From the IMG/VR virus record IMGVR_UViG_3300048502_000133, positions 21,431 to 85,430 of that record: DNA of 64,000 bases; one strand, given 5' to 3'. The DNA comes from a virus (Duplodnaviria; Caudoviricetes). The notes below the pieces were generated by a model. That model worked only from the letters and a program-made list of their open reading frames with translations, had not been told where the DNA came from and ran no database searches. Made by a program: the position numbers and the translations under genes. Of the stretch, positions 1,690 to 55,846 are shown one piece after another. Each line of letters opens with the position of its first letter. Position 1 is the stretch's first letter.

Positions 1690-2697
1690 TCACGATGCTA
1701 CAAGCTGATCCGCCAGCGAGAGTGCATCTACCGGCCAATACACGCGCGGGCGCGGCTGCAAAATACCGCGTAGACGCCCTCCGCCCCCAGGCTTACAATA
1801 CAGCACTACCCGGCGCCACTGGCCGGGCAAGGCATCCAGGCCATACAGTGCCCCGACCAGCGCGCCGCAGATAGCGCCGTTCGTGTCCGTATCGCCGCCG
1901 CTGCCTACGGTGCGCACCATCGCCTCTTCGCAGGTAGGCGCATGGAGCGCCTGGTAAAACGCGTTCTGCAGCGCCACCAGCACCCGCCCGCTGCTGGTGA
2001 CGAACGCCGGAGGCTCCGACCGCGCCGCTTCCAGGGCATGGGTCACTTCGCGGCTCCGCCCGTTTTTCTGGTCCCAGGCCCGCGCGACCGCGTAGGCACC
2101 CTCTGGGTCCAGCCCTTCGCGAATCACCGCCGCCAGCGCCACCAGATACGCCTTTGAGGCATCCTTGCAGACCTGATTCGGGTGGGTCATCGTGGTGTCC
2201 AGATCAACCCACAGCGCCAGCTGCCAGTCCGGGAGCCGGTGCCCCCAGATCGCCAGCGGGCTCTGCCGCATCAGCGCTCCGTTTGCCTGGCTGTCCGGAT
2301 TCGCGACCGCCCGCCCGGTACTCGCCAGCGGCGCGCCTCTGCGGCGTGCCTCCGCCATACCGCGCGTGGCGCGCCCGACCGTTCCGCCCACGTCGAAGGG
2401 CGCGCTTTCCAACCAGTCGGTATAGGCGCCCGCCACGTCCTCTTCATCGTACGCCCCACAGCGCACCAGCGACCGGGCCAGCGCCAGCGCCAGCTCAGAG
2501 TCATCGGTGGGCTGCCCCGCGATGGTCTGCCAGATCGGGCTGGGTCCGATGGTCCGAACGCCGCCGGGGAAGGCGTCCTCGATAGCCTCCGGCGGCATGA
2601 ACTCCACCTGGCTTCCCAGGGCATCGCCGGTCAACTGCCCCAGCAGGCACCCTGCGGCCCTGCTGCGCAGCGGCTCCGGTATGGTTCTCTTCTGCAT
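1690..2697 (-). CDS. draG: ADP-ribosylglycohydrolase (DraG/ARH family)
   Basis: GDALG, GQPTDDSELAL, NGALMR and GGDTDTNGAICGALVGA metal-binding motifs intact. Confidence 0.92.
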   Translation of the reverse strand: MQKRTIPEPLRSRAAGCLLGQLTGDALGSQVEFMPPEAIEDAFPGGVRTIGPSPIWQTIAGQPTDDSELALALARSLVRCGAYDEEDVAGAYTDWLESAPFDVGGTVGRATRGMAEARRRGAPLASTGRAVANPDSQANGALMRQSPLAIWGHRLPDWQLALWVDLDTTMTHPNQVCKDASKAYLVALAAVIREGLDPEGAYAVARAWDQKNGRSREVTHALEAARSEPPAFVTSSGRVLVALQNAFYQALHAPTCEEAMVRTVGSGGDTDTNGAICGALVGALYGLDALPGQWRRVVLYCKPGGGGRLRGILQPRPRVYWPVDALSLADQLVAS

Positions 2698-27639: not shown

Positions 27640-27679
27640 AGCCCCTGTGGCCCTGAAAAAGGCGCTACAGGGGCTTTTC
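27640..27679 (+). terminator. Probable intrinsic terminator
   Basis: AGCCCCTGTGGCC..GGCGCTACAGGGGCT stem followed by TTTT. Confidence 0.65.
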
Positions 27680-27703
27680 CCGTATACGCAGGAGAAAGGG
27701 ACC

Positions 27704-28335: not shown

Positions 28336-29395
28336 TACGGTCAAGGCACTGGCGGCGGGTCTGTCCGTTCTGCCGGATCCAGATGAGGAGGACGTGGTTT
28401 CTCCCGTTGCGGTGCCGGTCACTCCAGGCCCGGTCACCATGGCGACACTGGCCCACGCGACGGACGGGATTCCGCTCCTGGGGTACACCGTCTGGTGGTA
28501 TGTGCCCAGCAACGCCTGTGTCAAGCAGGACGCCTGGAACCAGGCGTGGAACGGGCGCGGGCTCCCCAAGATTCCGGCGAATCCCTGCACACCGCGCGCG
28601 GCGCTGCGGGCCGGTATCGAAGACTGGCTGGAAGATCGGGCGAAGGCGATGGGCTCTATCTACGGGCGGTACTCCACGAGTACCGAAGCCAGCCAGGTAA
28701 GCCTGATCCGGGTGATCAACTCCGCTGCCAGTCCGGAGACCGTCTTCGTCATCGTGATCGAACAGCGCGATCTGGCGAAGTACGGCCTGCAGCACGCGAC
28801 CGGGCTGCGGGTCTTCCTGAACAAGGAAGCAGGGACGATGTGGTGTACGGTCCAGGGGTCCGGCGGTGTTGAAGACGTGGTGCCGGAGCCCGCGATCGCG
28901 GCGGAGATTGCCCAGTATTGGGGTAAATACACGAACGCCCTGGTAGCGCGGGACGTGACCAACGCGCTGAATGAGGCACTGTCGCGCGTCGGCATGGTAC
29001 GCGTCAAGCGCGAAGGTGGGGTCTATTTTCTTCCCGCCAACTCCCGCCCGATAGCCGATGAACTCAACGAGTTTCTGGCTGCGGCGGTGCCTGGGGCGTA
29101 CATCTCGCTGCTGGGTGTCCCGGATGCAGGCGCGTCGAAAGTGGCTCTGATGCGCGGTGCTACAGACGGGCTTCTGGCAGAGATAAACGAAGAGGCGCGC
29201 GTGGTGGCCCGCTACGAGAGCGAGAAGGAGACGGTGCGCGTCAAGACCCTGGCGGGCGCGATGGGCCGGATCACGCAGCTGCGGGCGAAGGTCTCCGCTA
29301 CAGCGTCTCTCCTGGAAATGTCGAAAGACTCCCTGGAAGAGTCGCTAGGGACGCTGACGCGGCGCGTAGAAGACCTGATGCTGGATGAAGATTAA
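28307..29395 (+). CDS. DUF6744/DUF3150-like phage protein
   Basis: LGYTVWW..P..A...A..; GGVYFLPA; typical partner of phage AAA-VWA pairs. Family assignment from memory. Confidence 0.6.
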   Translation: MFKPTITPISTVKALAAGLSVLPDPDEEDVVSPVAVPVTPGPVTMATLAHATDGIPLLGYTVWWYVPSNACVKQDAWNQAWNGRGLPKIPANPCTPRAALRAGIEDWLEDRAKAMGSIYGRYSTSTEASQVSLIRVINSAASPETVFVIVIEQRDLAKYGLQHATGLRVFLNKEAGTMWCTVQGSGGVEDVVPEPAIAAEIAQYWGKYTNALVARDVTNALNEALSRVGMVRVKREGGVYFLPANSRPIADELNEFLAAAVPGAYISLLGVPDAGASKVALMRGATDGLLAEINEEARVVARYESEKETVRVKTLAGAMGRITQLRAKVSATASLLEMSKDSLEESLGTLTRRVEDLMLDED

Positions 29396-31806: not shown

Positions 31807-32519
31807 CGCGATCGATCTCCATTCCGCCGCCGCCGGACACGTCCCGGCTCCATGGAAAGGCGCTGGCAGCCTGGGTATGCTACCGCGACCTGGGCGCGTC
31901 GCGTACCCTGGAGGAGACCGCGACCACGCTGGGCTACGCCAGCCGCGACTCCATCAAGCGCTGGTACCGGGAATATAATTTTCCGGCAATGGCCCGCCAG
32001 TGGGACGCGCACCGGCAAGCGACACTGGACGCCGACGCGCTCAAGCACCAGCAGGAGCTTATCCGGGCACGCCGCGAAGAACGCCTCCAGATAGCGACCA
32101 GTTACCGGATGATGAGCCTGGCAACGCTCAAGCAGCACTACAGTGACGGTACACTGCCGCCCAATGTGGCCCTGGCAATGGCCCAGTTTGCCTCAAAAGA
32201 AGAACGGGCAGATCTGGGCGAACTGGAGACGCGCATCGGTCTGCAGGTGGAGGAGGAAACCGAAGTCCTGCACCAGCCCGCCGGTTCGCCTCTCGCGGCG
32301 CTGCGATCCCTGAGCCCGGAGAAGCGCCAGCTGCTCCTGGAACTCTTGCAGGAAGCCACCGGGTACCGTATGGATGAGGAGGAGGATCTGTTCGATGCAG
32401 CGTACCTAGAGGATGAAAGCGAACATGGAGACGAGCGTAGCGCCGTTCCTGGGCTGGGCCACTCCGGAGCTGCAAGCCGCATATCGGGCGGAACAGAGCC
32501 TCTATCGCTTCGTGCGTGA
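31803..32519 (+). CDS. terS: Terminase small subunit (probable)
   Basis: N-terminal HTH (YRDLGASRTLEETA..IKRW..W..RA..WD); lies immediately before terL. Confidence 0.7.
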   Translation: MTRSISIPPPPDTSRLHGKALAAWVCYRDLGASRTLEETATTLGYASRDSIKRWYREYNFPAMARQWDAHRQATLDADALKHQQELIRARREERLQIATSYRMMSLATLKQHYSDGTLPPNVALAMAQFASKEERADLGELETRIGLQVEEETEVLHQPAGSPLAALRSLSPEKRQLLLELLQEATGYRMDEEEDLFDAAYLEDESEHGDERSAVPGLGHSGAASRISGGTEPLSLRA

Positions 32520-34098
32520 AGCCTGGCATGTGCTGGAGCCCTCCACCCCCTTCGTGGACGGCTGGCATATCAAAGTCATCTGTGAGCACCTGGAAGCCGT
32601 TACGCATGGGAAGATCCACCGGCTGGTGATCAACATCCCGCCCCGGCACGCCAAGTCTCTGATCGTCGCGGTATTCTGGCCCTGCTGGGTGTGGACCCAG
32701 CAGCCCGGCACCCGCTGGTTGTTTGCCAGCTACGCGCAGACGCTCTCCATCCGCGACTCCCTCAAGTGCCGGAGACTGGTGCTCTCTCCCTGGTACCAGC
32801 GCTACTGGGGCGATCGGGTGAAACTCAGTAGCGACCAGAACGCAAAAGGGCGCTTTGAGAACACCGCGACCGGGTATAGACTCGCTACCAGCGTGGACGG
32901 CGTAGGGACGGGCGAAGGCGCGGATATTGTGGTCGCGGATGACCCGAACAACGCGACCGAAGCCGAATCCGACCTGATCCGATCGACGGTGAACCGCTGG
33001 TGGGATGAGGCTATGTCCTCCCGCCTGAATGACCCGGAGACCGGCTCCTTCGTGATCATCCAGCAGCGGGTACACCAGGAGGATTTATCCGGCCATGTGC
33101 TGGCAAAAGGCGACTATGAGCACCTGTGCCTGCCCGCAAGTTACGAGCCCGATCGGCCTGCAAAGACCATTCTAGGTGCCTACGATCGACGCACCGTTGC
33201 GGATCAGCCTCTCTGGCCGCAGCGTTTCACCCGCCGGTCTATCAACCGGCTGGCGCGCGCCATGGGACCGTACGCCGCCGCAGGGCAGCTCCAGCAGCGC
33301 CCGGCCCCGCGCGAAGGCGGTATTTTCCAGTACGACTGGTGGGGCACGTACACCCCCGCCAATCTCCAGATGGGGCGCTGCTCCCTGGTGCTGCAGGCGT
33401 GGGACACCGCCTTCAAAGAGGGCGCGGAGAATGATTATTCCGTCTGTGCGACCTGGGGCGTATTCCCGAACGGGTACTACCTCCTGGACCTGTTCCGGGA
33501 GAAAGTCAGTTTCCCGAAGTTAAAACGAGAGGCGATCGCCCAGCACGCCCGGTGGCGCCCGTCAGTGGTGCTGATCGAAGACAAAGCCTCCGGGCAGAGT
33601 TTACTCCAGGAACTCCGGGCCGATACGGTTATCCCGATTATTCCGGTCAAAGTAGGGCCGCACGAAGACAAGATCTCCCGCGCTACCAGCGTGTCCCCCA
33701 TTGTCGAATCCGGGAAATGCTACCTCCCCGAAGGAGCGCCATTTCTGGAGGCTTTCTTGAGCGAACATGGGAACTTCCCCAACGGCGCCCATAAAGACAT
33801 TGTGGACACCACCGTCATGGCCCTTCGCCGCCTGTCCTCCGGCGAAGTCGGCGTGGCGCTGGAAGAAGACGATGCCCTGCCTATGGAGGACGTGGCTGTG
33901 GACCCCTGGGGCAACCCGATAGAGGTGGATTCCGGAGTCCGGCGCCCCCTGATCAAGATGAGCCAGGAAGACCTGGAGGATCACGATCTTGGAAAGCTAC
34001 TCACCAGAGACCCGCACACCCACCGCACCGCGCCCACGCCCGTCAGTGTTCCTCCCTTTGGTCTTGACCTGTCTGGGGCGTTTTTTGATGACCTGTAA
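32413..34098 (+). CDS. terL: Terminase large subunit
   Basis: INIPPRHAKS Walker A, IVVADDP Walker B, IQQRVHQEDL, YAAAGQLQQRP, QAWDTAFK..DYS, IEDKASG, FPNGAHKDIVD. Confidence 0.97.
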   Translation: MKANMETSVAPFLGWATPELQAAYRAEQSLYRFVREAWHVLEPSTPFVDGWHIKVICEHLEAVTHGKIHRLVINIPPRHAKSLIVAVFWPCWVWTQQPGTRWLFASYAQTLSIRDSLKCRRLVLSPWYQRYWGDRVKLSSDQNAKGRFENTATGYRLATSVDGVGTGEGADIVVADDPNNATEAESDLIRSTVNRWWDEAMSSRLNDPETGSFVIIQQRVHQEDLSGHVLAKGDYEHLCLPASYEPDRPAKTILGAYDRRTVADQPLWPQRFTRRSINRLARAMGPYAAAGQLQQRPAPREGGIFQYDWWGTYTPANLQMGRCSLVLQAWDTAFKEGAENDYSVCATWGVFPNGYYLLDLFREKVSFPKLKREAIAQHARWRPSVVLIEDKASGQSLLQELRADTVIPIIPVKVGPHEDKISRATSVSPIVESGKCYLPEGAPFLEAFLSEHGNFPNGAHKDIVDTTVMALRRLSSGEVGVALEEDDALPMEDVAVDPWGNPIEVDSGVRRPLIKMSQEDLEDHDLGKLLTRDPHTHRTAPTPVSVPPFGLDLSGAFFDDL

Positions 34099-34109: not shown

Positions 34110-35708
34110 ATGCCCAACAACCATCCGCGCGAAACGGCCCCGCGCCAGGAATCGCTGGCAGAGTTCGCGCATACCGTCTCTGACAGCTCCGATCGCCTGG
34201 CGGTTCTGCTCAACGAAGCGCGTGCCCGCGTCTCCCAACGCCCCGATCCCGGTGACCCGCCCGACCGGCCCACTTCCCCGGATCGCGCCTCTGCGGTCAC
34301 CCGCACCACGTACCCGACCGGCGATCAGGGCGGCGATCCCCTGATGAAGTCCAGCTACCTCACGACTGACGTAAGCAACCGCGCCCGGAAGATCTCCCTG
34401 TATCAGGCGTTCCTGGGCGAATCCCCGGTGTCAGGGGCAATTGAAGCTATTGCCGCCCGGCTGGTCTCCGGCGGCTGGGTGCTAAAGCCCGTCGATGCGA
34501 AGCACCCCAACGAAGAGACCAGAGAACCCCTACAAGAACTCCTTGACTGGTGCAACCCGGACGAAGAGTTCGGGCAGATGCTCCACGACACCGCGACCGA
34601 TCTCCTGTGGGCAGGCGAAGCCTACTGGGAAATCACCAGCAAGTCCAGCGTCTACTGGGGGCGGAAAGTCCCGTACGAGCTATTTACGGTAGACCCGATC
34701 TCCATGGATTACGTGCTGGCCCCCAACCGCAAGCAAATAGCGGGCTACGTCCAGCAGGGCGAAGACGGGAAGCCCATCCCGCTCAAGCCCTCGCAGATCA
34801 TCCGCTGGTGGTTTCCGGACCCGCGCAACCGCTTCAAGGCGCTGTCTCCGCTGGAAAAGCTGCTCAACCCCGTGGTCACTGACACGTATTTACAGTTATC
34901 TGATCAGAAATACTTTCAGCAGGGGAACCGCTCCGGTACGGCAATTTTGTTGAAAAACGGCAATCAAGCCCTGGCGTCCCGCCTGCTGCGCTGGATCACT
35001 GAGCAATACCTGGGCGTCAAGAACGCGCACAAGCCGCTGATCCTGTTTGGTGAGCAATCGGACATGGACATACGCGACGTGCCCGACCACAGCTCCATAG
35101 ACGTGGTGGAGCGCCGCAAGTACTCCCGCGATGAAATCCTCTCCGGCTACAAAGTCCCGCCGCACCTGATGAGCGCCCTCGAAGGTACCGGGCAGGGTGG
35201 GCAGGCAGTGGGCGACACCATGGAGAAGCAGTTCGTGCATACGGCTGTGGACCCCATCCGCCAGCGCATCATGAGCAAGGCGACGTTCCGTATCTGTGTG
35301 CAGGGCTTTGGTATTGACGACTGGGTGATCGACACCACGTACGCCGATCTCCGCGACTCCGATAGAGTTCTGGAGAACATGAAGACCCGCATCTTTACCG
35401 GGCTCTCCACCATCAACCGGGAACTCGCGGAGCAAAAGCAGCCGTCCATCGAAGGCGGCGATATTCCCATTCTGGTGCTGGGCTCTACGATTGTCCGGGT
35501 AGATTCACTGCCCAACCTGCCCATGACGCCACCGGCGCCCGGCGGTGCCGCAGGGGCAGGTGGCGACGAAGACCCGACCGGCAGTGGGTTTACGGGAGAC
35601 CCGAAAGACGATCCCAGGGACAAGCAGGCCGCCGCCCAGAAGCCGAAAACGCCCGCAGACGCCAAGGGAACAACGGGTCACCCAACCGGCCCGGACCTCT
35701 CCGATTGA
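34110..35708 (+). CDS. Portal protein
   Basis: PN..EEFGQML..DLLWAGEAYWEI; LSPLE; RDEILSGYKVPP; TINRELAE..P.IEGGD. Confidence 0.92.
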   Translation: MPNNHPRETAPRQESLAEFAHTVSDSSDRLAVLLNEARARVSQRPDPGDPPDRPTSPDRASAVTRTTYPTGDQGGDPLMKSSYLTTDVSNRARKISLYQAFLGESPVSGAIEAIAARLVSGGWVLKPVDAKHPNEETREPLQELLDWCNPDEEFGQMLHDTATDLLWAGEAYWEITSKSSVYWGRKVPYELFTVDPISMDYVLAPNRKQIAGYVQQGEDGKPIPLKPSQIIRWWFPDPRNRFKALSPLEKLLNPVVTDTYLQLSDQKYFQQGNRSGTAILLKNGNQALASRLLRWITEQYLGVKNAHKPLILFGEQSDMDIRDVPDHSSIDVVERRKYSRDEILSGYKVPPHLMSALEGTGQGGQAVGDTMEKQFVHTAVDPIRQRIMSKATFRICVQGFGIDDWVIDTTYADLRDSDRVLENMKTRIFTGLSTINRELAEQKQPSIEGGDIPILVLGSTIVRVDSLPNLPMTPPAPGGAAGAGGDEDPTGSGFTGDPKDDPRDKQAAAQKPKTPADAKGTTGHPTGPDLSD

Positions 35709-36851: not shown

Positions 36852-36907
36852 TCTCCTGACGCGATCCCACCCCTCGCTCCCTGGACAGTCCAAAGGACGT
36901 GCCCTGC

Positions 36908-39001
36908 ATGGCAGCTTCTCAATCGCTTGCACAGATTCTTTTTGATCCGGTCGCCACCACGAGCCCGAACAACCGGCCCTATGTAGACATTGGGAACCTT
37001 TCCAACGCCCCGATCCCGGTCGCGGTTATGTCAGGCGGTACCGCCGCCACGCAGTACACCAGCGCCGCTACGGTCTCCGGCAACCCTACTGGTATGGCAA
37101 TTGTGTTCAACAACGCCGGTACCTGGGCCACCGCTGGCTCCGTTACCCCGCTCCCGATCTCCGGCACCATCACCCCCGGATCGTCTGCCGCCATCAATGA
37201 CGGCGTGGTGACCACCCAGAAGGCAACGGTCGCGCAGTTCCACAACGCCGACAACCAGAACCCCGGCGGTACGGCCTACGGGCTACTCACCGGCGGCGTG
37301 GCCCAGCTGCTCAACATTGACGGCAACATCGATCGTCAGCGTGAGACAGGCACCGATAACGTCCCGGCCCAGGGCATCTCGACCGGATCCATGCAGATGG
37401 CCATGAGTTTCAACGGCCTGATGAGTGTGGACGCGACGGGCGCCGGTGTCCGCACCTTTACCCCGACCAGCCCCTCTACCTCCAACAGCGGCACCATCGC
37501 CGGTGTCCCCTGGTGGATCAAGCCTGGCACCGTTCTTTCCATCGACACCGGCGTCAATCAAGAATGGATCGTGGTCACCGCGACCAACGGTACCGTCCTG
37601 TCCAACGGGCAAGTCGTGACGGCTGGCACCACCTTCCAGGCAACCACGCTGCGCGCGCGCTCCGGTACCACGAATATCCCGTTTACCGGATTTACCTATA
37701 ACCAAGAACGGGACGCCGCCGGTGAGCTGGACGGCGCGACGGGCTCCGGTACCGCGCTGGCTGTCGATTATCTCTACAATGGCGGCGCCGGTGCAACGAG
37801 CGGCAACTACGATCGGGAACGATCGCTCTCCGGCCTGGGCCTGTTCGCGGGTGCCCTGAGCACCGCCACCCAGGGCACGTCAAGCCTGGTCTTCTCCGGC
37901 ACGCCGACCGGCCTGCAGCCCGGCACGCCGATCTTCCTCTACACCAGCTCCGCCGCCGGTACGGTCCCGTCCGAAGTGGTCTACGTCTCCACGCTCTACG
38001 TGTCCGGTACCACCGTACCGATCACCAGCACCATCCAGACCGCCGGTATCACCTACGCCCGCTTCAGCGCCAACAGCGTGATCGGTCCCGGCATCGCGGG
38101 CTTCCTGCCTACGGGCGAGGGCGCCGAAATCGCCGGTATCTTCTCCAACGCCCAGCAGCTGTACTACCTGATCCGGTCTGCCGAAGTAGACGCCATGCCG
38201 CTGGCAAGCGTGCCGATGGAAAACGCCGGGCTGTACAACGGCACCACCTTTGATCGCCAGCGTTCGGTGCTCAGTGACGCCCAGGCAGCCATTGGTATCG
38301 AAGCCGCGACGGACATGCTCTACAACGGTTCGACGTTCGATCGTGCCCGCAGCGCCACTGCGGACGCGATGGCTATCACCGGCGTCGAAGCCGCGTCGGA
38401 CATGCTCTGGAACGGCTCCAGCTTCGATAGAGCCCGTTCTGCGGTCTCCGATGCCCTGGCCACCACCGGCATCGAAGCGGCAAGCGAAATGCTCTGGAAC
38501 GGCTCCAGCTTTGACCGCGCCCGCAGCGCAACGATAGGCGATAACGTGGCGCCTACCGGCATCGGCGCCGATAGTTTCTACGTCGTGACCGCTGCCGCCG
38601 GTGGCGTGGCGTCTCTCTCACCGCTGCGCACCCCATCGGTCTTCAAGACCATTACCGCGACGGCGTCAGGCTCCACCGCGCTGTGGACGCCCGCCGGTGG
38701 GAAAAAGTTCCGCGCGATGCGGTATATCATCGAAGTCACCGGCAACGCCGCGATTGCGTCCGGCGGCGTCCTGACCATCGATCTCCTGGACAGCGCCGCG
38801 TCGTTCAACAACACCCATTCTGTGTGGGTACCGGCGTCGGCCCAGGCCACCACCCCAGGCGGCGGCTTCTCGACCGGCTGGATCGATCTGGGCAACGGCT
38901 ACCTGTCCACAACCGCGAACAACATCCTGAACGTCTCGCTGTCAGCCGCGCTCACCGCTGGCCTGGTACGCGTGACCATAGCAGGCACCGAAGAGTCGTA
39001 A
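36908..39001 (+). CDS. Gly/Thr/Ala-rich beta-structured virion (fibre/decoration-like) protein with 29-aa repeats
   Basis: Composition typical of virion fibres; four (Y/W)NG(S/T)(S/T)FDR repeats. Confidence 0.65.
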   Translation: MAASQSLAQILFDPVATTSPNNRPYVDIGNLSNAPIPVAVMSGGTAATQYTSAATVSGNPTGMAIVFNNAGTWATAGSVTPLPISGTITPGSSAAINDGVVTTQKATVAQFHNADNQNPGGTAYGLLTGGVAQLLNIDGNIDRQRETGTDNVPAQGISTGSMQMAMSFNGLMSVDATGAGVRTFTPTSPSTSNSGTIAGVPWWIKPGTVLSIDTGVNQEWIVVTATNGTVLSNGQVVTAGTTFQATTLRARSGTTNIPFTGFTYNQERDAAGELDGATGSGTALAVDYLYNGGAGATSGNYDRERSLSGLGLFAGALSTATQGTSSLVFSGTPTGLQPGTPIFLYTSSAAGTVPSEVVYVSTLYVSGTTVPITSTIQTAGITYARFSANSVIGPGIAGFLPTGEGAEIAGIFSNAQQLYYLIRSAEVDAMPLASVPMENAGLYNGTTFDRQRSVLSDAQAAIGIEAATDMLYNGSTFDRARSATADAMAITGVEAASDMLWNGSSFDRARSAVSDALATTGIEAASEMLWNGSSFDRARSATIGDNVAPTGIGADSFYVVTAAAGGVASLSPLRTPSVFKTITATASGSTALWTPAGGKKFRAMRYIIEVTGNAAIASGGVLTIDLLDSAASFNNTHSVWVPASAQATTPGGGFSTGWIDLGNGYLSTTANNILNVSLSAALTAGLVRVTIAGTEES
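38231..38530 (+). repeat. Four tandem 87-nt (29-aa) coding repeats
   Basis: Units start at 38231, 38318, 38405 and 38492: L(Y/W)NG..FDR.RS...DA.A.TG(I/V)EAA..M. Confidence 0.9.
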
Positions 39002-45342: not shown

Positions 45343-46539
45343 ATGGCTGTCTTGACCACCGGCGCCCGCCGGGTGCTCCTCGCGGGCATCGTGGCCAGTC
45401 TCCAGGAATCCGGATCCACGCACTGGGTCACTCTCAAATCCAGCGCCGGGCTGGTTACCCACGTCTGCGTGGACGCCTCCGGCACGATCACCCATGGGCC
45501 TGGGCATCTGCGGGGACACAACATCAACCACCTGCCCGCCGCGCCGCCGCGTACCTCCGGCGACACGAAGACGCATACGTCCAGTAAAAAAGTATCCGGA
45601 GATCTTCCGGCGGAAGTCACGCACCATGCCCCCGGCGCGCCCGCGCCCGCCGGTGCCGCGCACTTTGGCGATGACGAGCCCGCTGGACCAGTACCGGACA
45701 GCTCCCCGGAGAGCGCGCAAGCTGCCTACGGCGCCGCCCATAGCGTGCTGGTCGCGGATACATCCCCGGAAATCCACACGTCGTTCAAGTCCTGGGTCAC
45801 CGGCAACATGCAGCAGGCGGTCGCGGCGTATCGCAAGCGGTTCGGCAACGTGATCAATGTCGATGACGCGCGCGAACTCAGCCCGGACTACGCCCACTCC
45901 AAAGAATCCCGTACTGCCTTTGCCAACGCGGTACAGAGCGGCGCCGGTGAGCTGGCCTGGAACGCCTACACACAGATGCTGGAGGAGCCCCCACCTCCCG
46001 GAAAATCGCCGCTGGTTGCGTTTCTGGCAGGCGGTGCCGGTTCGGGCAAGTCGAGCGCAGTCGGCAACGTACCGGGCCTGAATAACACCATAGCGCACGC
46101 CCACATTGTCTTCGACTCCACCATGAGCCGCCTGGACGACGCGGTAGAGCGCATCAACATGGCCCTGGCGGCAAAGCATGACGTGCTGATCGCCTATGTC
46201 CATCGTGACGCGGTAGACGCCTTCACCAACGGCAACCTGCCCCGCGCGGAAAATGACGGGCGAACGGTCCCAATCGCCTACCACGCCGCCGGGCACGCGG
46301 GCGCCGCCGAAGTGATCCGGGCGCTGCAAGAAAAATACAAGGGTGACAAGCGGGTAGAGATACGCGCCATCGACAACTCACGCGGCAAGGGCAAGCAGGC
46401 GGAAGTCCCGCTTTCCGCGCTCTCGCATGTGCAGTACAACCAGGAAGCACTCACCAACCAGCTGCACGAAGAGCTGGAGAAAGCACACCATGCCGGGGAA
46501 ATCTCGCGCCGGGTCTACGCTGCAACCCGGTCCCGATGA
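45343..46539 (+). CDS. Shared N-terminal domain plus zeta-toxin-like P-loop kinase
   Basis: FLAGGAGSGKS; VINVDD; IVFDSTM..IAYVHRD..R...GRTVP..H; leader ends LQE|S followed by the 39-aa shared motif. Confidence 0.8.
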   Translation: MAVLTTGARRVLLAGIVASLQESGSTHWVTLKSSAGLVTHVCVDASGTITHGPGHLRGHNINHLPAAPPRTSGDTKTHTSSKKVSGDLPAEVTHHAPGAPAPAGAAHFGDDEPAGPVPDSSPESAQAAYGAAHSVLVADTSPEIHTSFKSWVTGNMQQAVAAYRKRFGNVINVDDARELSPDYAHSKESRTAFANAVQSGAGELAWNAYTQMLEEPPPPGKSPLVAFLAGGAGSGKSSAVGNVPGLNNTIAHAHIVFDSTMSRLDDAVERINMALAAKHDVLIAYVHRDAVDAFTNGNLPRAENDGRTVPIAYHAAGHAGAAEVIRALQEKYKGDKRVEIRAIDNSRGKGKQAEVPLSALSHVQYNQEALTNQLHEELEKAHHAGEISRRVYAATRSR

Positions 46540-46865: not shown

Positions 46866-49800
46866 ATGGCCCTATACCACGCCTTTGCGGAAATCCGGCG
46901 CGACCTTGCACGCCGTCTGCAAGAATCCGGCGGCGGGCACTGGATAACGCTGGTGTCCGATGAAGATATTGAGACGCACGTATTTGTCGGCGGCGGCGGG
47001 CAGATCACCAAAGGCCCCAAGCATCTGGTAGGCGCCAATATCGCGCATCTTCCCGCCCCGCCCCATCATGGGGATGTTATCTCCGGCGGCAAGAAGCCCA
47101 GCAAGGTGATCGAGCACAAGCCCGGCACCAAGGGGGCAAAAAACGCCGCCAAGAAGGCGACGGAGCACCCTAGCTACCACGAACACCAAGAGACGAAAAC
47201 CGCGCACGTCTACGGCAAATGGGGTCCAGGCGTCGGCTATGACGTGCAGGTAGACAACCCGCTCCCTGAAATGAGCGCGGATCACGCGCACCTGGGCTAC
47301 CAGGCAGCCGTAGACGAACAGAAGCTCAAGGCGGGCGGGCTCCACCACGCAGGCATCGCTCCGGCACTGGAAGCCCGCACGCACAACGAAATCACCGCCG
47401 CCCAGCACGAAGCGCTCCGGCATGGCCTGCTGGCGGGAGATCTCCATGAGGCCAACTTTGCCGACACACTGGCCGGGCACAAGAGCGATCACGCCCTGGC
47501 GAAGAAGGTCGCGCACGACGCGATCGACGCGCACGTCAAGGCGGGCGCCCTGGAGCAGTCCACAGCGGAAGATCTCCACGCCGGGCTGGATATGGGCCTG
47601 CTCACGCCCGCACAGATCCACGCCGGGAATGACCACGCCATGCAGCAGCACCTGGCGGGTATGGCCCAGGCGAAGCAGCACAAGGCGCTGCAGGACGCGC
47701 ACGCGGCGGTAGACACCGTAGGCCCGAACTCCCCGTTCAACGCGGTCAAAGCCCACGCCGATCTTGACTCCGGCACCGTCTCCCCCGAAGAGATGCTGGA
47801 GAAGGTGGACAAGCTCAAGAAGATGGAAGCGCACCAGGCGCTGACCAAAGCAGAAGTCCAGGGCATCTTCGATACGCCAACGACGCCCGCCGATCTCGCG
47901 CAAAAACTGCATCAAGATCTCACCAACGGCGACATGAGCCCCGAAGCGATACACGCGGAACTGGCAGACCAGAAGGCTGCCTATACGGCGCATGTGGGTT
48001 CGTTCCTGGACACGGAGCACCAGGCAGGCAACCTGGGCCTGACCGACGCCGACGCGGCGGATCTCAAGGCTGCCCTGCAGAAGGGCGACCTCACGCCGCA
48101 GTACGTGCATGGCGTGGTCAAGCAGCTCAAGGCCGCGAACGACCAGAGCAAGCTCATGGACGACATGAACAAGGCCCACGATACGATCGACGCGGTAGTC
48201 TCCGCCGGGCTGGTCCCGTATCACCTTAGCTCCCTGCACCAGCAGGCTGCGGCAGGTGACACCGCAGGCGTCTACAAGACCCTGGAAGAGCAGGCGGCGC
48301 TCTTTACCGCGAACGAAGACGCGCTCAAGGCGATGGTCAAGGCAGGCACGCTGACGCCAAGCGAAGCCGACGACATTAAACACAGCATCCTCTCCGGCGC
48401 AACCCCCAATACCGAAGACGCCGCCGGAAACGCCGCCAATCTGGTGACAGAGCAGAAGATCAAGGGCGCGCACGATCTGCTGCAGCAGGCATACGACCAT
48501 GGCGCGATCGGGCTCTCCGCGAAGGGCCACTACCAGACCTCTCTCCTGACCGGGCTCAAGAGCCCCCAGGAAATCTCCAGCCTGCTGTCCACGCAGTACG
48601 GGTATACCCCGGAGACCGCCGCGACCGCGCACGCGATCGACGCCGCCAAGCAGGCGGGCCAGATCACCTATAACCAGGCATCGGATCTGCAGGATCTGGT
48701 CTTCAACGGCTCCTATTCCCAGGAGTACGTCAAGGACAAGCTGCAGGAGATGATCGGCGGGCACGACGCCCTCCACAACGCGGTAGACGGCGCGGTCAGC
48801 GCGGGCATCCTGGATCCGGACACCGCGACCTACATCAAGGAAGGCGTCCACAACGGCAACGTCACGCCCGGCGAGGCCCAGGAGCTTATCCAGACCCTCA
48901 CGTCTGCGGTAGACCAGACCAACGCGGCGGCACACACAGCGGATCAATCGACACTCGCGCCGGTCGCGGTGCCCATGGACGGGCACGCCGGTATCGACGC
49001 GCACCACCAGGCGGGCATCATCACGTCAGATCATGCCCACGATCTCCACGACTCACTGGACGCGGGGTTTATCGATCAGCAAGATCTCAACGCCATGCTG
49101 GGCTCCGCGAAAGCCGCCCACGACGCCCAACAGGAAGTCGCCGCACACACCGGCACGCTCCAGCAGGCGATAGACGACGCGCACGCCGCCGGAGGCATCG
49201 ACGCCGCTACCCACCAGCTCCTCCATGGGCACCTGGCGCATGGGTCCATGAGCCCGGAGGAAGTCTACGGCGCCCTGGGCAATCACATGACCGGCGCCGC
49301 CGCAGCGGATCTGATTCCACCGCTCGACACCCGCCCGACGCTCAACATGGCCCAGTGGTCCAAGAAAGGCAACGACGCCGCGCAGAAAGTGTGGGACAAG
49401 CACCACTCCAGCGAGGAAACCGCCGCGAACCGGGTCAGCAAGCGCCTGCAAAAGCTGATTACGCCGCAGGAGGCCGAAGCGCTCCATGACGCGATCGTCG
49501 GCGGCACCTATGGCGGAGGCTACAAAACCTACCACCCCGGCAACCCTCACGCTGCCCTGGCACGCCTGATTACAGAGCACTGGAACGCTTCTTCCACGAA
49601 ATTAGGCTCCCTGGTAGGGATGCACGCGGTTACGGATGAGTTCGGGCTTCCCGGCTTCCAGAACGATCCGGGCATTGGCGATGCGGACTACAACACCGCC
49701 ACCAAGATCTATAAGCAGCACACCAAGGCCGCCAGGGCCTGGGCGCGCGCGGTCTACGATGAAACACAGTCACACTTTGCCCAGGAAGGCGTTACGCACG

Positions 49801-51482
49801 TCTCATTGGCGCGCGGCGGCGGCGTGTGGGGCGAAACACCAGGAAGTAAACACAAGGCTCTGCAGGACGCCGCAGCGGAAGCAGGGTTCGGCAATGCTGC
49901 GGTCGCGCACGTTGCCGCTGGGAGTCACTATCAACGCCCGCTGGCCAGCTGGGCGTTGAACCAGGGCTTCAGCAAGGAAGGCAACGGCGAAAACGGCGTT
50001 ACCCACATGGCCACCTTCCCGGTCTCGCACATCTTCTCCCACTCTGGATCCGGGCCAGGCACCAGCTACGAAGTAGAGTACGTCCCTATGGGGCATAACC
50101 AGGATCACCTGGTCATTCGCGGCGATGATGCCCGGCGCGCACTGGTCACAAAGATCCAGAAAGGCGAAGGCGTCTCGATTCAACCAGGGCAGGGCGGCAA
50201 GGCGTCACTGCTGGGCAAGGCAGACTACGATCCGAACACAGAGTACGCCGAAGGGCCGTACGCCGCCGGTGCGAAGAGCCCCGCCGGTGTGCCGTTAGCG
50301 TCCGGCGCGCACGCCGCAGGGAGCCCCGCCGGTACGACCCCCAAGAAGCCCGCCAAACCCAAGACCAAAGAGCAGGAAGAAGCCGCCTTCAACAAGTCCC
50401 TGGCGAAACTGGGCGTGGATCCGCACAAAGTCCCTGAATACGGCAACATGACCGTCCCTACCGCGCTCAAGCACGCCCTGGCAGCGGGTCATATCGACAA
50501 GGCCGAACACGACACCATGCACGCCAAGTGGAAGAGCAAGTACGCCTCGAAATCCAGCGTCATGTACGCCCTGCAGCAGCTGAGTTACAACCACCTCCAC
50601 AAGCAAGCGCTCCACCACATCACCGGCGCCCTTGCCAACGGAGAGATTACCGGCCAGCAAGCCGTCCACTACCTGGAGCAGATCCAGCACCAGTCCTACA
50701 AGCCCGCGCTCACCGACCTTGCCCCGAAGGACAAGACCCACGAAGGCGCGCGGGCGTTCTCACTGGCAACCGCCTATGAGGACGCCGGACACATCTCCGG
50801 TAAGCACCTGGCGCATATCGCCCAGGCGCTGAATGATGAGCCCAATAGCACCATCGAAAAGCACCTCTCCAAGTACTACCAAGGTGCTGATAACACCCTG
50901 ATGAACTACCAGGCCAGCACTGCCGCGAAGACGATCGCGCACGCCGCCTTCAACAGCCAGCCCGGTACACACGCGATCAGCAACGACCACATCAACAACA
51001 TCATGTACGACCTGAACCACCACGCGACCGACCAGGCCAGTTTCCATCTCCTGGCGCATCTGCTGCCCAGGGGCGGCACCCTGGGACCAACCGCGTTGCA
51101 GCACGTCGAACGCGCCCACAGCGCCGGGCACCTGACCTACCAGCAGCGCATGGCGCTCAGGTCCGGGCTACTCAGCGGCGACACAAGCCCCGACGCCGCG
51201 CTGCACACGCTCAAGACGGAACATAACTACGACGCCGCCAACCCCATAGGGACGCACGTAGGTGCCAACCAGTACCCGGCGGAGTCCAGTTCAATGATCG
51301 CCAAGCAGGCCCTGGCAAACGCTCTGGCGGCAGGCCACATCACCCCGCTGGAGCACGACGCGCACCTGAACAGCCTCAAGGGCACCGTCTACAGCGACAA
51401 AATCCCAGATCTTCATACCGCGCTTGCCCATGCCGCCACCGCGCACCAGGCGAATCAAACGCACAGCACCCAGGCAGCCTAA
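46866..51482 (+). CDS. ~1540-aa His/Ala-rich protein: shared N-terminal domain, helical repeats, ADP-ribosyltransferase-like domain
   Basis: GGAGG RBS; VSLARG..PLASW..YEVEY (R-S-ExE); more than 12 A..AG.I/L repeats. Confidence 0.75.
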   Translation: MALYHAFAEIRRDLARRLQESGGGHWITLVSDEDIETHVFVGGGGQITKGPKHLVGANIAHLPAPPHHGDVISGGKKPSKVIEHKPGTKGAKNAAKKATEHPSYHEHQETKTAHVYGKWGPGVGYDVQVDNPLPEMSADHAHLGYQAAVDEQKLKAGGLHHAGIAPALEARTHNEITAAQHEALRHGLLAGDLHEANFADTLAGHKSDHALAKKVAHDAIDAHVKAGALEQSTAEDLHAGLDMGLLTPAQIHAGNDHAMQQHLAGMAQAKQHKALQDAHAAVDTVGPNSPFNAVKAHADLDSGTVSPEEMLEKVDKLKKMEAHQALTKAEVQGIFDTPTTPADLAQKLHQDLTNGDMSPEAIHAELADQKAAYTAHVGSFLDTEHQAGNLGLTDADAADLKAALQKGDLTPQYVHGVVKQLKAANDQSKLMDDMNKAHDTIDAVVSAGLVPYHLSSLHQQAAAGDTAGVYKTLEEQAALFTANEDALKAMVKAGTLTPSEADDIKHSILSGATPNTEDAAGNAANLVTEQKIKGAHDLLQQAYDHGAIGLSAKGHYQTSLLTGLKSPQEISSLLSTQYGYTPETAATAHAIDAAKQAGQITYNQASDLQDLVFNGSYSQEYVKDKLQEMIGGHDALHNAVDGAVSAGILDPDTATYIKEGVHNGNVTPGEAQELIQTLTSAVDQTNAAAHTADQSTLAPVAVPMDGHAGIDAHHQAGIITSDHAHDLHDSLDAGFIDQQDLNAMLGSAKAAHDAQQEVAAHTGTLQQAIDDAHAAGGIDAATHQLLHGHLAHGSMSPEEVYGALGNHMTGAAAADLIPPLDTRPTLNMAQWSKKGNDAAQKVWDKHHSSEETAANRVSKRLQKLITPQEAEALHDAIVGGTYGGGYKTYHPGNPHAALARLITEHWNASSTKLGSLVGMHAVTDEFGLPGFQNDPGIGDADYNTATKIYKQHTKAARAWARAVYDETQSHFAQEGVTHVSLARGGGVWGETPGSKHKALQDAAAEAGFGNAAVAHVAAGSHYQRPLASWALNQGFSKEGNGENGVTHMATFPVSHIFSHSGSGPGTSYEVEYVPMGHNQDHLVIRGDDARRALVTKIQKGEGVSIQPGQGGKASLLGKADYDPNTEYAEGPYAAGAKSPAGVPLASGAHAAGSPAGTTPKKPAKPKTKEQEEAAFNKSLAKLGVDPHKVPEYGNMTVPTALKHALAAGHIDKAEHDTMHAKWKSKYASKSSVMYALQQLSYNHLHKQALHHITGALANGEITGQQAVHYLEQIQHQSYKPALTDLAPKDKTHEGARAFSLATAYEDAGHISGKHLAHIAQALNDEPNSTIEKHLSKYYQGADNTLMNYQASTAAKTIAHAAFNSQPGTHAISNDHINNIMYDLNHHATDQASFHLLAHLLPRGGTLGPTALQHVERAHSAGHLTYQQRMALRSGLLSGDTSPDAALHTLKTEHNYDAANPIGTHVGANQYPAESSSMIAKQALANALAAGHITPLEHDAHLNSLKGTVYSDKIPDLHTALAHAATAHQANQTHSTQAA

Positions 51483-51493
51483 AGGAGGCGAGA

Positions 51494-54271
51494 ATGGCAG
51501 ACGGTAAGTGGGTCACGCTCAAGTCACACACCGGCATGGTGACCCATGTGCATCTGGACGACAGCGGGAACATCGACAAAGGCCCGCACGTCCTCCTGGG
51601 GCACAACATTGCGCATCTCCCGGCGAGTCCCAGTTTTCCCACGCACCCGCAGCATGGCGGCGCGCTTCCCCACAGCATGGACGATCTCAGCCCGTCAGCT
51701 GATGGACCGGGTATGATGAACGAGATCCTGGCGAAGCAGCACCCGGACTATGCCTACATGGCACCGGGCCACCCGCTCCCGGCCAAGCACCAGGACCAGG
51801 CACCCGGCGCCTATCACCAGGCGCTGGACCAGCAAAAGAACGTCAGTAGTTTACAGTCCACCCCTCCCCCTGCTGCACCGACGCCCGCCGGTACGGACTA
51901 CAACCAGGGCGAACACGCAGCGAAAGCCCAGGCCGCGCTCAAACACGCCTATGACGAAGGGGCGCTGACCACCGGCTCTCACGCGTCCCTGATGAAGAAA
52001 CACGCCGCAGCGGAGATGTATAGTCCCCAGGAGGCGAAAGACGAATACGACCGGCTGATCCGGGTGGGCGAACGCGCCCGCGCGCTCCAGCACCTGGACA
52101 CAGCGGTCAACAAGGAAGAGCTACCGCAGCGCATCGCGGATGAGATCAAGCTGGAGCTGCAGGGCAGCAAGCGCTCGGACCAGCTGGCACTGATGCACGA
52201 ACTCCTGGCAACGAGGGTCGCGGAGAACGCCGGGCATAAGGAAACCGCGACGAACATCCTGAAGGATGCCGCGAACAGCGGCTTTGGGGACGCCGAACTG
52301 ATGCCCCACATGCAGGCACTCCTCTCCCCGAAGAAGAACGTAGACTACCAGGGCATCGGTACCGCGCTCAACAGTCAGCTCAAGGAGAAGGTCAAGAACG
52401 ATGCGTTCACGCGCGGGCTCCTGGGCCAGCAAGACCTGGAAGAGCTGAACAGCGGCGACACGCCCACCCTCTCCGCGAAATCGCTTCGGCTGCAGATACG
52501 GGCGTTGTCCTCCATGCACGCCCTCACCCGGATCGGGAATCTCCCCGCAGGGCCGATCAAGACCGCCGCCCATAACGCGTTTAGCCGGGCGCTGGGCATC
52601 GACATACCGGACGAAAACACCGATGAAGGGCGCGGGCAGGTGGCACACGTCGCCAAGCTGCACAAAGCCCTGGGCCTGTTTGAAAAACAAGCCCAGCACG
52701 ACGCCCAGGCATCCAGCCTTCAGGACAAGACCGCATCGGCGCAACTAGGGGCGGTACAGTACAAGGGCAAGCTGGCCCAGCTGGCGGCGGCGGGCGCCGC
52801 TGGCGACACGATCCACCAGAGCAATAAATCTTTCGGCACGCCGAATACCGCCCCGACCTGGCACTTTTCGGTGTCCGGCGTCCCCGGCGGCGCCGGGCCG
52901 CATGAGCACGCGTCGTTCGCGAAGTCCGTCGCCCACAGCACCAGTACGCTGACGCCCGCAGTCATCACCGCGACCAAGAAGGTGGAACAGGCGGGCTTGT
53001 ACAAGCCTGACGGGAGCCTGTACAAGCCGCAGCAGCTCAAAGCCTCCACCTCCAAGACGCTGGGCGACCGCTTCAAGAAAGCAGGCATCACCGCCGATCA
53101 GGCAACCGCGCTCTACAACGTGATGGGCCTGTACGACAACTTCCACAGCGATCCCCATGAGAAACTGGCCAGCGGTATCTTGCAGCGCTGGCAGCATCAG
53201 GTTTCCAACAGCGTGGGCTCCTCCGCCATCCAGCAGGCAGCAAGCGAGTTGTTCGGGACGACATGGTGGAATGGCAGCAAACCACCGTTTGTTACCCAGG
53301 AGAACTACGATCAAGGCAGAGCGATCGCCGCGAACCCGGCCTACAGCGCCCCGCTCAAGGCCGCACTCAGCGAAATCTACAACAACACCCAGGAGTACTA
53401 CAAAGCGCGGGGAATTACGCACGTCGCGGTCGCGCGCGGTGTCAAGCGGCTCAAGCACCCCGCCTTCCAGCAGGCGGCACAGGCAGCGTTCGACAGCGGG
53501 AAAGACAGCATCACCTACCAGCTGGAGCCGGGCTCCGCCGATGAAATACCGCTCTCCAGCTTCGCCACAGACCCCATGGTCTGCATCGGCAAGGCGGACA
53601 ACCCCTACAAAACCAGCATGAACTTTCAGGTACCCAACGGCAACGACGTAAGCTCCGGCGGCATCAGTACAGTGCTCTACGCGCAGATCCCGGTAGAGCA
53701 CATCTTCAGCTGCCCGCATACAGGTCAGGGATGCCTGGGAGAGAGCGAGGTAGGGGTGCTGGGGCACGCGCGCGCCTATACGGCCATCGCCGCGAAGGGC
53801 AGTCTGGAGCCGTATGTGCCGATTTTCAAGAAGATTCAAACAAATGGCTACACGCCGCCTGCAGAATCTGCCATCATAGGCAATACCAGGAGTGTTTCTG
53901 AGGCGTCCCGGCGCCCGAAACGCCGCGTATGGCTTGACGCTGGCAGCCCTGAGAACCCGGATTGGATTAAAATGGGCCGCTGGGACTTCCATGGCACACC
54001 CGAAGAGCAGGCAGAGCAGGTAATCGAGGGGGCAGACCCCAAGGACGCCCAGGCAAAACTGGATGCCTTCCTGCGGACGCCCGCCGCCGCGCCTATGCCG
54101 GAATACGTCCGGCACGCACTGCGCAAGAAGGGGCTTTCGGTTCCGAATGGCCCTACCCTGGGGCGCGAGGACAAGATCGGTGAAACGGCACTTGCCGCAC
54201 ACAACGCCGCCCGCGCGCAGATCAAGGCCGATCTCCAGAAACGCCTCTCCCGCCATCTCCCCCCATCCTAA
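51494..54271 (+). CDS. 925-aa protein: shared N-terminal domain, helical region, ADP-ribosyltransferase-like domain, small C-terminal module
   Basis: AAGGAGG RBS; VAVARG..PLSSFAT..IPVEHIFS..GESEV (R-S-ExE). Confidence 0.78.
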   Translation: MADGKWVTLKSHTGMVTHVHLDDSGNIDKGPHVLLGHNIAHLPASPSFPTHPQHGGALPHSMDDLSPSADGPGMMNEILAKQHPDYAYMAPGHPLPAKHQDQAPGAYHQALDQQKNVSSLQSTPPPAAPTPAGTDYNQGEHAAKAQAALKHAYDEGALTTGSHASLMKKHAAAEMYSPQEAKDEYDRLIRVGERARALQHLDTAVNKEELPQRIADEIKLELQGSKRSDQLALMHELLATRVAENAGHKETATNILKDAANSGFGDAELMPHMQALLSPKKNVDYQGIGTALNSQLKEKVKNDAFTRGLLGQQDLEELNSGDTPTLSAKSLRLQIRALSSMHALTRIGNLPAGPIKTAAHNAFSRALGIDIPDENTDEGRGQVAHVAKLHKALGLFEKQAQHDAQASSLQDKTASAQLGAVQYKGKLAQLAAAGAAGDTIHQSNKSFGTPNTAPTWHFSVSGVPGGAGPHEHASFAKSVAHSTSTLTPAVITATKKVEQAGLYKPDGSLYKPQQLKASTSKTLGDRFKKAGITADQATALYNVMGLYDNFHSDPHEKLASGILQRWQHQVSNSVGSSAIQQAASELFGTTWWNGSKPPFVTQENYDQGRAIAANPAYSAPLKAALSEIYNNTQEYYKARGITHVAVARGVKRLKHPAFQQAAQAAFDSGKDSITYQLEPGSADEIPLSSFATDPMVCIGKADNPYKTSMNFQVPNGNDVSSGGISTVLYAQIPVEHIFSCPHTGQGCLGESEVGVLGHARAYTAIAAKGSLEPYVPIFKKIQTNGYTPPAESAIIGNTRSVSEASRRPKRRVWLDAGSPENPDWIKMGRWDFHGTPEEQAEQVIEGADPKDAQAKLDAFLRTPAAAPMPEYVRHALRKKGLSVPNGPTLGREDKIGETALAAHNAARAQIKADLQKRLSRHLPPS

Positions 54272-54295: not shown

Positions 54296-55846
54296 ATGCA
54301 CCTCTCAGAAGCTCTCCCCTCCCCGCAGGTGGCAGGCGCGGTGAAGGAGAAAGGGCCAATCTACGCGAAGATTCGCGGAACGTGGCTCAAGAAAGATTCC
54401 CTCTCGCTCAACAACCGCTTCTATCCCGCCGCGACGGTAGAGGCAGCGGTGGCCAGCGCCCAGCGCCGGATCGCGGACGGCGCGCTTCCGCCGATCAAGA
54501 TGATGAGTTCGCACGCCGCCGGGGACGCCGATAGCGTCTACGACACCGTAGGCAAGCTGACCAAAGTGTGGTTGGACGGAGACGACGCCTGGTATGAGGG
54601 CGAGATACCGAACACGAGTGCTGGCCGCGATCTGGCAGCGCTTCTGCAGGGCGGCTTCCATGACGGCGTATCGCTCTACGCCGAAGGTGGGAGCGCCGAA
54701 GTGGCAGAGGGTGAAATGAACGGCAAGCGCGTGTCCATCGTCAAAAAGATGGAGCTGGAGCGCCTGGACCATACCGTCCGTCCGGGCGTCAAGAGCGCGC
54801 GCAACCGGGAAGTCGTGATTCTGGAATCAGTAGACCCTGCCCGCGTCTCTGAGATCACGCCCGCCGCCCCGAAGCCGTTCTCCGCGTTTGACCCGTTCTA
54901 CCAGCAGATGCTGGACGCGATCACCGGCAAGCCCACCAGTGCTGATGATGTCTATCAACCCGAAGCCGCGATCCCACCGGAGAGCGCCGCCGCGCCGCCC
55001 GCAGACCTCACGCCAACATCCCCACAGGAGAACGCTATGGCTGGCACCACGCCGGATCTGGCTGCCCAGATCGATCTGATCCTTGAGGAACGACTTCAGG
55101 CGCTCAATGTGCCCGCCGCGACCCTGGGCGGTGCGCTGGATAACCTGATCACCTACCTTGCCGCTGACAGCGTGCAGGAAGAGGGCAGGATGATCTCTGC
55201 CGACAACCGGCAGAAGCTCTCCGCTGCCCATGACCACATCGCCGGTATTCTGGGCATGGACTGCGCGGGCGGGCAGGACGAAGGCGAGGGCTCAGACGAT
55301 GAGCCCGACGATCGCCCGGAAGACGACACCGATCCGGACGGCGAAGACGCCATGGACGACAGCGAAGGCAACAACGCCGGAGCCGACGCCCAGCGCAAGC
55401 AGTTCAAGGGCGCCAAAGCCCGCAAGGCAGCCCAGGAACGTCAGGCCCCGATTCCGCAAGAAGCCCTGATCGCGCGCGCTGTTGCCGCAGCGCTCCGCGA
55501 AGCCGGGGTGACCCCGAAGACGCCGCCGAAGCCCGCCCGTCCCGTCGATCCGGTGACCGCGCAGCTGGCAGCGATGCAGGCCCAGATCACCGCGCTCACC
55601 GAAGCCATCCCCAACGCGATCAAGGTCGCGGAGAAGGCAAGCTGGCGCCAGAACCCGAAGCGACAGACCCAGATCGTGGAAAACGACGACGCGGCGCCTG
55701 GCGACGGGCCGATCCGCGAACGACAGGATGCCTTGACCGCGCGTATGGCCGACAAGAACGTACCGATCGAACGCCGCGTCCATGAAGCCGCGATACTCAT
55801 TGAACAAGCGCTCAAGGAGCGCGATGAAGTGATGGGTATCTTCTAG
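54296..55846 (+). CDS. T4 gp21-like prohead protease fused to scaffold region
   Basis: [36 protein letters not shown] resembles gp21 (NKRLYP..GVSSRG..D..P); acidic and coiled-coil C-terminus; directly precedes capsid. Confidence 0.8.

Follow-up and report, generated by a model that had tools for sequence, protein, structure and literature searches.

Two adjacent genes in the head gene block of a Caudoviricetes virus encode giant proteins, P0001 (1538 amino acids) and P0002 (925 amino acids), each carrying one predicted, catalytically intact mono-ADP-ribosyltransferase (ART) domain of the R-S-ExE type. The genes lie in a stretch of 64,000 nucleotides, hereafter called the window, which comprises bases 21431-85430 of the 85,430-bp IMG/VR virus record IMGVR_UViG_3300048502_000133 (completeness estimate 79%; G+C content 62-65%). 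We consider it probable, at roughly 0.6, that both proteins are virion cargo injected to modify host proteins. Both would be made late, alongside the head proteins, and would be drawn into the prohead by a shared N-terminal tag of about 45 amino acids. At the next infection they would be ejected with the DNA, and in the host they would carry out ADP-ribosylation of host proteins that depends on nicotinamide adenine dinucleotide (NAD+), most likely at arginine residues, so as to take control of the cell or disarm it, in the manner of T4 Alt. The two diverged copies would probably have different targets, and a DraG-like hydrolase of the same genome may reverse or restrict the modification. The domains belong to a family of R-S-ExE ARTs comprising 1383 clusters, which is largely missed by Pfam.

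The two ART domains

Positions are given for the window, and features lie on the plus strand unless the minus strand is named. The P0001 gene (46866..51482) is an open frame preceded by a GGAGG site at a distance of 4 nt and the P0002 gene (51494..54271) an open frame with an AGGAGG site, both Shine-Dalgarno sites being strong. In P0001, the N-terminal tag is followed by a long His/Ala-rich helical region, the ART domain and a helical C-terminal region; in P0002, it is followed by a helical region, the ART domain and a C-terminal tail of about 145 amino acids. ART domain 1 covers residues 848-1099 of P0001 (49407..50162) and was recognized by BLASTP against the P0002 domain (4e-9) and by a family hidden Markov model (HMM) with 1.8e-46 over residues 899-1089. 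ART domain 2 covers residues 518-780 of P0002 (53045..53833) and is supported by an AlphaFold2 model, structural matches and family conservation. The N-termini of the two proteins also matched each other (2e-9), and among 238 family copies both window copies fall inside one clade of four tips. Judged by these comparisons the domains are true paralogues, as had been proposed in a preliminary description of this DNA.

The predicted catalytic residues are R983 (49812-49814), S1028 (49947-49949), E1069 (50070-50072) and E1071 (50076-50078) in ART domain 1 and R648 (53435-53437), S689 (53558-53560), E750 (53741-53743) and E752 (53747-53749) in ART domain 2, so that the whole R-S-ExE set is retained in both copies. 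In the translations, the surrounding motifs read THVSLARG (49794-49817), PLASW (49938-49952) and EVEY (50070-50081) in P0001 and THVAVARG (53417-53440), PLSSF (53549-53563) and ESEV (53741-53752) in P0002, each of them where the preliminary description had placed it. That description had also spoken of an S-x-S motif. The Ser is indeed conserved in the family, but the wording of the motif does not hold, as the window copies read P-L-[SA]-S-[WF]; the conserved Ser is the first Ser of the family consensus S-W-S/T, and the third position of the motif, S or T in the consensus, is Ala in the window copies. A match of the upstream helical parts (W, FG, Y..TQ), likewise reported before, proved real, and these residues are conserved across 50 aligned homologues. 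Searches with P0001, P0002 and the isolated domains against Pfam (E<=1 and E<=10) and PHROGs (E<=0.1) gave no match, and it was therefore fair to call the domains hidden in hypothetical proteins.

The His/Ala-rich helical regions (47000-49400 and 50200-51480 in P0001; 51900-53000 in P0002) contain recurring G-x-[LMV]-[TS]-P-x-E units resembling SHOCT-type hairpins, and one family member matched the DUF1707 SHOCT-like model. Tandem DNA repeats were considered as the source of these helical repeats and rejected, none being present in the DNA.

Predicted fold

For structure prediction, residues 518-780 of P0002 were modelled with AlphaFold2. Using an alignment of 50 sequences, a predicted local distance difference test score (pLDDT) of 87.9 and a predicted template modelling score (pTM) of 0.88 were obtained, whereas an alignment of 2 sequences gave a useless model (pLDDT 42). 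The model consists of six helices followed by an alpha/beta core. R131 of the model (= R648) stands at the end of strand 126-133, S172 (= S689) is on strand 170-174, after which comes a short helix (177-181), and a 12-residue loop (223-234) leads to strand 235-239 with E235 (= E752) as its first residue. In the model, this is the canonical strand order of R-S-E ARTs, with Arg on beta1, the S-x-S strand, the ADP-ribosylating turn-turn (ARTT) loop and the ExE strand.

In a structural search of the model against 48,161 PDB representative chains (VIA-align), the top 21 matches were all of the ART fold and spanned model residues 1-254, with Z scores of 4.2-6.1, which are moderate and 'middling' by the tool's own grading. 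They comprised HopU1, ART2.2, VIP2, C2-I, ExoS, the toxin of a Listeria ART-ADP-ribosylhydrolase (ARH) pair, the Yersinia RHS2 toxin, CPILE-a, Vis, Certhrax, C3larvin, Tre1, the VIP2-like domain of anthrax lethal factor, C3bot2, XopAI, SpvB, C3stau2, TreX and SidE. The closest solved folds, HopU1, ART2.2, VIP2, C2-I, ExoS and the C3-like exoenzymes, match the model over its N-terminal helices as well as its beta core (Z 4.4-6.1; 143-173 aligned residues), whereas their identity to the window domain is only 8-15% at a root mean square deviation of 4-5.6 Å. Profile searches of PDB sequences returned chance-level rows only. No single score is strong, and the case for the fold is built on the fact that the top matches are uniformly ART-fold proteins. 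An R-S-ExE ART fold in both proteins, as read in the preliminary description, is supported by triad conservation, by the model with its structural neighbors and by homologues that match the Pfam DRAT family along the equivalent stretch.

Conservation and distribution of the family

A profile built solely from the two window domains was run against 1.84 billion representative proteins and detected 1383 of them at E<=1e-3 and 166 at E<=1e-10. Many of the matches are giant multi-copy proteins: by the core HMM, 62 of the 159 proteins examined carry at least two near-full copies, and P0004 (7059 amino acids; ENA contig of 83,841 bp) has 11 ART copies in a single protein. Another example is a 2912-amino-acid frame with 7 ART copies in a 74-kb viral record (G027:C1:44049-51611).

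Across 238 near-full copies, the Arg is present without exception (238/238). Ser occupies its position in 218 of them; of the two acidic ExE positions, the first is Glu in 222 (Gln in 5) and the second is Glu in 234. R, S and E occur together in 217. In the 50 aligned homologues, R131, G132, T115, Q116, P216, G227, G229 and E235 are invariant, and W49, F70, Y112, S172 and E233 are found in 90% or more. Besides the triad, the invariant positions include Y-x-x-T-Q on the helix preceding beta1 and G-x-G(-C) in the loop preceding ExE. This conservation bears on the question whether P0001 and P0002 could lack catalysis altogether, retaining no more than an ART-like fold while serving as structural or scaffold components of the prohead core. 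Their genes are found at the position of a prohead core protein, low-complexity helical repeats make up most of each protein, and the anthrax lethal factor domain among the structural matches is itself an inactive ART fold. Nevertheless, R, S and both Glu residues are kept in both window copies and in the 217 complete copies of the family, which would be hard to explain without catalysis, and an inert role appears extremely unlikely.

The family is enriched in viruses and found almost only there. A DNA pattern for the T-G-x-G-C..E-x-E-x-V-V-L-G stretch matched at least 120 IMG/VR contigs, with 119 of 120 loci confirmed by the family HMM, while in 185,579 prokaryote species genomes (one per species) it gave 6 matches, all of them true. 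When deposited phage genomes were searched by tblastn, with P0002 and two further family members as queries, the family appeared only in the Bacillus phages vB_BceM-HSE3 (gp023, L001) and SP-15 (SP15_258, L006), both copies being annotated as 'hypothetical protein'. A word-index homology search recovered the query alone and, in its 'longer' mode, 4 proteins only; the ESM Atlas yielded no usable match, and a search for related loci with a single domain found none. A limited full-text literature search revealed no paper on a DraT-like ART in phage virion proteins, and two reviews (PMC5512222, PMC9503650) name none, which is weak evidence that the family has so far gone undescribed.

Relation to DraT and other ART families

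Four homologues exceed the cut-off of the Pfam DRAT model (PF07357), namely P0006 (83 bits), P0005 (39), P0010 (32.6) and P0008 (27.6), and in each of them the DRAT-matching stretch is located inside an HMM-defined ART copy. DRAT is also matched at E<=0.01 by 14 of the 50 aligned members. Neither P0001 nor P0002, nor either domain on its own, showed a match to DRAT even at E<=10, and a scan of the genome with this single family was likewise negative. Since homologues pass the DRAT cut-off and the window copies fail it, the family, as far as sequence models can tell, belongs to the R-S-E clade and is distantly related to DraT, without being a member of the Pfam family.

Other families were not matched. 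ADPrib_exo_Tox (PF03496), the Pfam family of T4 Alt and VIP2, gave no match to P0001 or P0002, and hhalign of the family alignment against T4 Alt resulted in a probability of 0.15%, a weak test as the template was a single sequence. ART-PolyVal/Tox-ART-HYD2 (PF18760) did not match P0001 or P0002 either, and the active-site pattern is R-S-ExE, not H-Y-[EDQ]. ExE is the signature of Arg-specific ARTs, as in cholera toxin, VIP2, iota toxin, ExoS, ART2.2, Alt and DraT.

The domains might also use NAD+ without acting on protein arginine, for example as NAD+ glycohydrolases depleting the NAD+ pool, as modifiers of nucleic acids or small molecules, or by attaching NAD-capped RNA like ModB. All of these chemistries are compatible with the ART fold. 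In addition, the invariant, family-specific Y-x-x-T-Q and G-x-G-C motifs are without an assigned role, and the zeta-toxin-like kinase encoded next to P0001 belongs to a family that includes enzymes acting on NAD+ or UDP-sugars. The full R-S-ExE set and the DraT-matching relatives, on the other hand, point to Arg-specific protein modification, as does a phage-encoded hydrolase that is closest to DraG, the remover of ADP-ribose from arginine. A substrate other than protein arginine is thus rather unlikely.

DraG-like hydrolase

This hydrolase is a full-length DraG-like ADP-ribosylglycohydrolase of 335 amino acids (1690..2697, minus strand; Pfam ADP_ribosyl_GH, 200.8 bits), encoded in a divergent non-structural block on the strand opposite to the ART genes and about 45 kb away from them. 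Its best solved relatives are the DraG proteins of Rhodospirillum and Azospirillum, 2woc (7e-28) and 3g9d (1e-24), followed by two immunity hydrolases, Lmo0067 and Tri1. The hydrolase fits an arginine-linked, reversible modification and is, by similarity, a possible eraser of the marks set by the ARTs. No Macro domain was found in the genome. An ARH as a regular partner of the ART family was rejected, as neither the 45 other viral records with the family (0/45) nor the two Bacillus phages (0/2) have the gene. Because these 47 other phages with the ART have none, the pairing is either special to the phage of the window or coincidental.

N-terminal tag and head gene context

The plus-strand block reads, in this order, large terminase (TerL; 32413-34098; head and packaging block), portal protein (34110..35708; PHROG 12, 6.6e-32; Pfam Phage_portal, 7.7e-24), with which the head block begins, several unknown genes, the zeta-toxin-like kinase (398 amino acids; 45343..46539; Pfam Zeta_toxin, 7.2e-10), P0001, P0002 and a prohead maturation protease with a T4 gp21/S77-like N-terminal domain (54296..55846; PHROG 207, 2.8e-8; Pfam Peptidase_S77, 3.4e-4, under the cut-off of the model). 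The gap between the P0001 stop and the P0002 start amounts to 12 nt, and that between the P0002 stop and the protease start to 25 nt.

The tag of about 45 amino acids follows the pattern HW[IV]TL...THV...G.I..GP..L.G.NI.HLPA.P. In P0001, it occupies residues 19-70 (46920..47075; alignment and tag HMM), in P0002 residues 1-50 (51494..51643; BLASTP, alignment and tag HMM) and in the kinase the N-terminus (~45403-45567). When the window was scanned with the tag HMM, exactly these three frames were detected. The kinase is a putative third cargo protein. The tag recurs in P0009, P0012 and P0054 from other contigs; P0009 and P0012 are family members of the same overall build, and each was seen on a Logan contig of 11,429 bp, probably a single contig. 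An L-(Q/R)-E-(S/A) motif precedes the HW of the tag by 3-5 residues in the zeta-like kinase, P0001, P0009 and P0012 (window 45343-45405 and 46866-46928), and P0002 begins directly at the tag. The motif may be a T4 gp21-type cut site releasing a leader of about 20 amino acids, or just part of the domain.

The genomic context of relatives was analyzed in 45 viral records of at least 20 kb. A PF04860 portal was detected in 23 of them. The ART shares the strand of the portal in all 23, lies downstream of it in 21 and is no more than 10 kb away in 21, where about 3 are expected by chance; some of these records are near-duplicates, which brings the independent count nearer to 17. MuF, a head protein in which effector domains have been described (PMC5512222, PMC9503650), is present in 24 of the 45 records, always near the ART (~10 kb), and shares an open frame with it in at least 8. 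In one aligned family member, a portal domain is fused.

Apart from the near-duplicates, several findings weigh against the reading as injected ARTs. Phage_Mu_F (PF04233) is absent from the whole 85-kb record, and the portal is separated from the window ART domains by 13.7 and 17.3 kb, a greater distance than most relatives show. Both cultured Bacillus phages carry the family among small unknown genes, away from the head genes. A role of the tag in packaging is a guess, and gp21-type [LIV]xE[ASG] sites as enriched features or as sites excising the ART domains found no support (3 observed versus 3.7 and 2.1 expected). On the side of the enzyme, Foldseek of the model against the PDB gave nothing at E<=1e-3, its weak rows including ART toxins. 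The middling Z scores, the restriction of modelling to the P0002 domain, the missing Pfam ART match and the lack of the hydrolase in relatives have to be added.

The context in the Bacillus phages and the missing MuF would suit active ARTs that work late inside the producing cell, like T4 ModA/ModB or as modifiers linked to assembly, and that are neither packaged nor injected; packaging itself is something we infer. Against such a late role stand the tight placement of both genes between portal and prohead protease, the tag common to three adjacent proteins and the position of relatives directly downstream of the portal, often fused to the virion protein MuF. We assign it a small chance.

The frequent fusion to MuF is also the architecture described for phage-borne polymorphic toxins (PMC5512222), and cargo of this MuF-toxin kind would mainly harm competing bacteria or aid a lysogen instead of taking over the host. 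The presence of an ART and an ARH in one genome resembles the toxin-immunity pairs Tre1-Tri1 and Listeria ART-ARH, both of which were matched here. However, bacterial genomes contain the family very rarely, whereas it is common among viral contigs, the ARH gene is not adjacent to the ART genes, and no evidence of an integrase or of lysogeny was seen near the genes, though no search was made for any. A toxin role of this kind is very unlikely.

Going beyond the proposal of injected ARTs, one may imagine a phage-run writer-eraser cycle of the DraT/DraG type on host arginines. Two writers and the zeta-like kinase would be delivered from the capsid via the shared tag, which would replace MuF, and an eraser expressed by the phage would later remove or limit the marks, resulting in a timed on/off switch. 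Polyvalent proteins carry H-Y-D ARTs, and the family, with as many as 11 copies in one polypeptide, would then be an unrecognized R-S-E counterpart of those enzymes. This extended scheme is tentative and, as a whole, doubtful.

History of the two copies

In a tree of the 238 copies, one small clade (support 0.76) unites P0001 (with the fragment P0003), P0002, P0009 and P0012. Within it, P0002 is nearer to P0009 and P0012 than to P0001, which is on a long branch, and therefore the duplication is old within the phage lineage, with subsequent divergence of the copies. The ART copies of P0001 and P0002 are about 25-30% identical; P0001 has lost the loop Cys, and S-G replaces T-G. This divergence is consistent with different targets for the two copies.

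Comparison with known systems

What is known of head-packaged ARTs comes, to our knowledge, chiefly from T4 Alt and computational surveys. T4 Alt is an R-S-E ART that is made late, packed into the head and injected, and that modifies host RNA polymerase and other proteins (PMC5512222, PMC9503650). The likeness to the window lies in the T4-type prohead protease gene adjoining the ART genes, and it is gene context that speaks for packaging and injection of the window proteins. Differences are the lack of a detectable sequence relation, the presence of two paralogues in the window and the much larger size of the proteins; also, T4 Alt has a short capsid-targeting peptide, whereas the window proteins have the tag instead. 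By analogy, T4 Alt is the best working analogue.

DraT, the nearest sequence family, shares the R-S-ExE-type triad with the window family, and in Rhodospirillum and Azospirillum, as in the phage, a DraG-type hydrolase is encoded in the genome. DraT and DraG serve the control of nitrogen fixation, whereas the window ARTs are located in a phage head module, inside proteins of 925 and 1538 amino acids. MuF-ART fusions and polyvalent proteins make up a wider theme already known in phages (Iyer et al. 2017, PMC5512222; Iyer et al. 2022, PMC9503650). The theme, into which the window family fits, is that of large virion-associated multi-domain effectors encoded beside the portal, but the window proteins are without MuF and without an ART-PolyVal match and are R-S-ExE and DraT-like. 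The family thus behaves like the ARTs of polyvalent and MuF effectors and yet belongs to another catalytic clade.

In Tre1-Tri1 of the Serratia type VI secretion system (PDB 6drh/6dre) and in the Listeria ART-ARH pair (8za7), R-S-E ARTs are countered by an ARH. The ARTs reached Z 5.0 (6drh_B) and Z 5.4 (8za7_B) to the model, and the ARHs 2.5e-13 (6dre_A) and 6e-14 (8za7_A) to the phage hydrolase. Both pairs are adjacent toxin-immunity genes of secretion systems, whereas the phage genes are far apart.

With two diverged writers, a kinase with the same tag and a DraG-like candidate eraser in one genome, the phage offers a compact test case. If the activities were confirmed, the proteins could yield new reagents for Arg-ADP-ribosylation as well as a candidate tag for capsid targeting. 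They could also open a route to asking which functions or defences of the host are shut down by phages during the first seconds of an infection.

Further features of the window

Megablast of the region against deposited phages gave zero matches. Because the nearest terminases are those of Roseobacter and Paracoccus phages (41-46% identity), the sequence suggests an alphaproteobacterial host. Directly after the portal gene, at the usual position of MuF, there is an open reading frame of 700 amino acids (36899-39001) that neither Pfam nor PHROG models match. Upstream of the packaging genes (24666-29395), a MoxR-type AAA+ protein (bpMoxR, 6.5e-44), a VWA protein and a DUF6744-like gene are encoded, and the minus-strand block contains a gene for a KTSC-domain protein (12582-13256, minus strand; 9.7e-18). 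The GC-rich spacer between the zeta-like kinase and P0001 (46770-46835) contains CCAGCGGCGCCCG twice, with a short GTAC-centred palindrome before each copy; the CCAGCGGCGCCCG repeats could be a terminator, an attenuator or a regulatory repeat.

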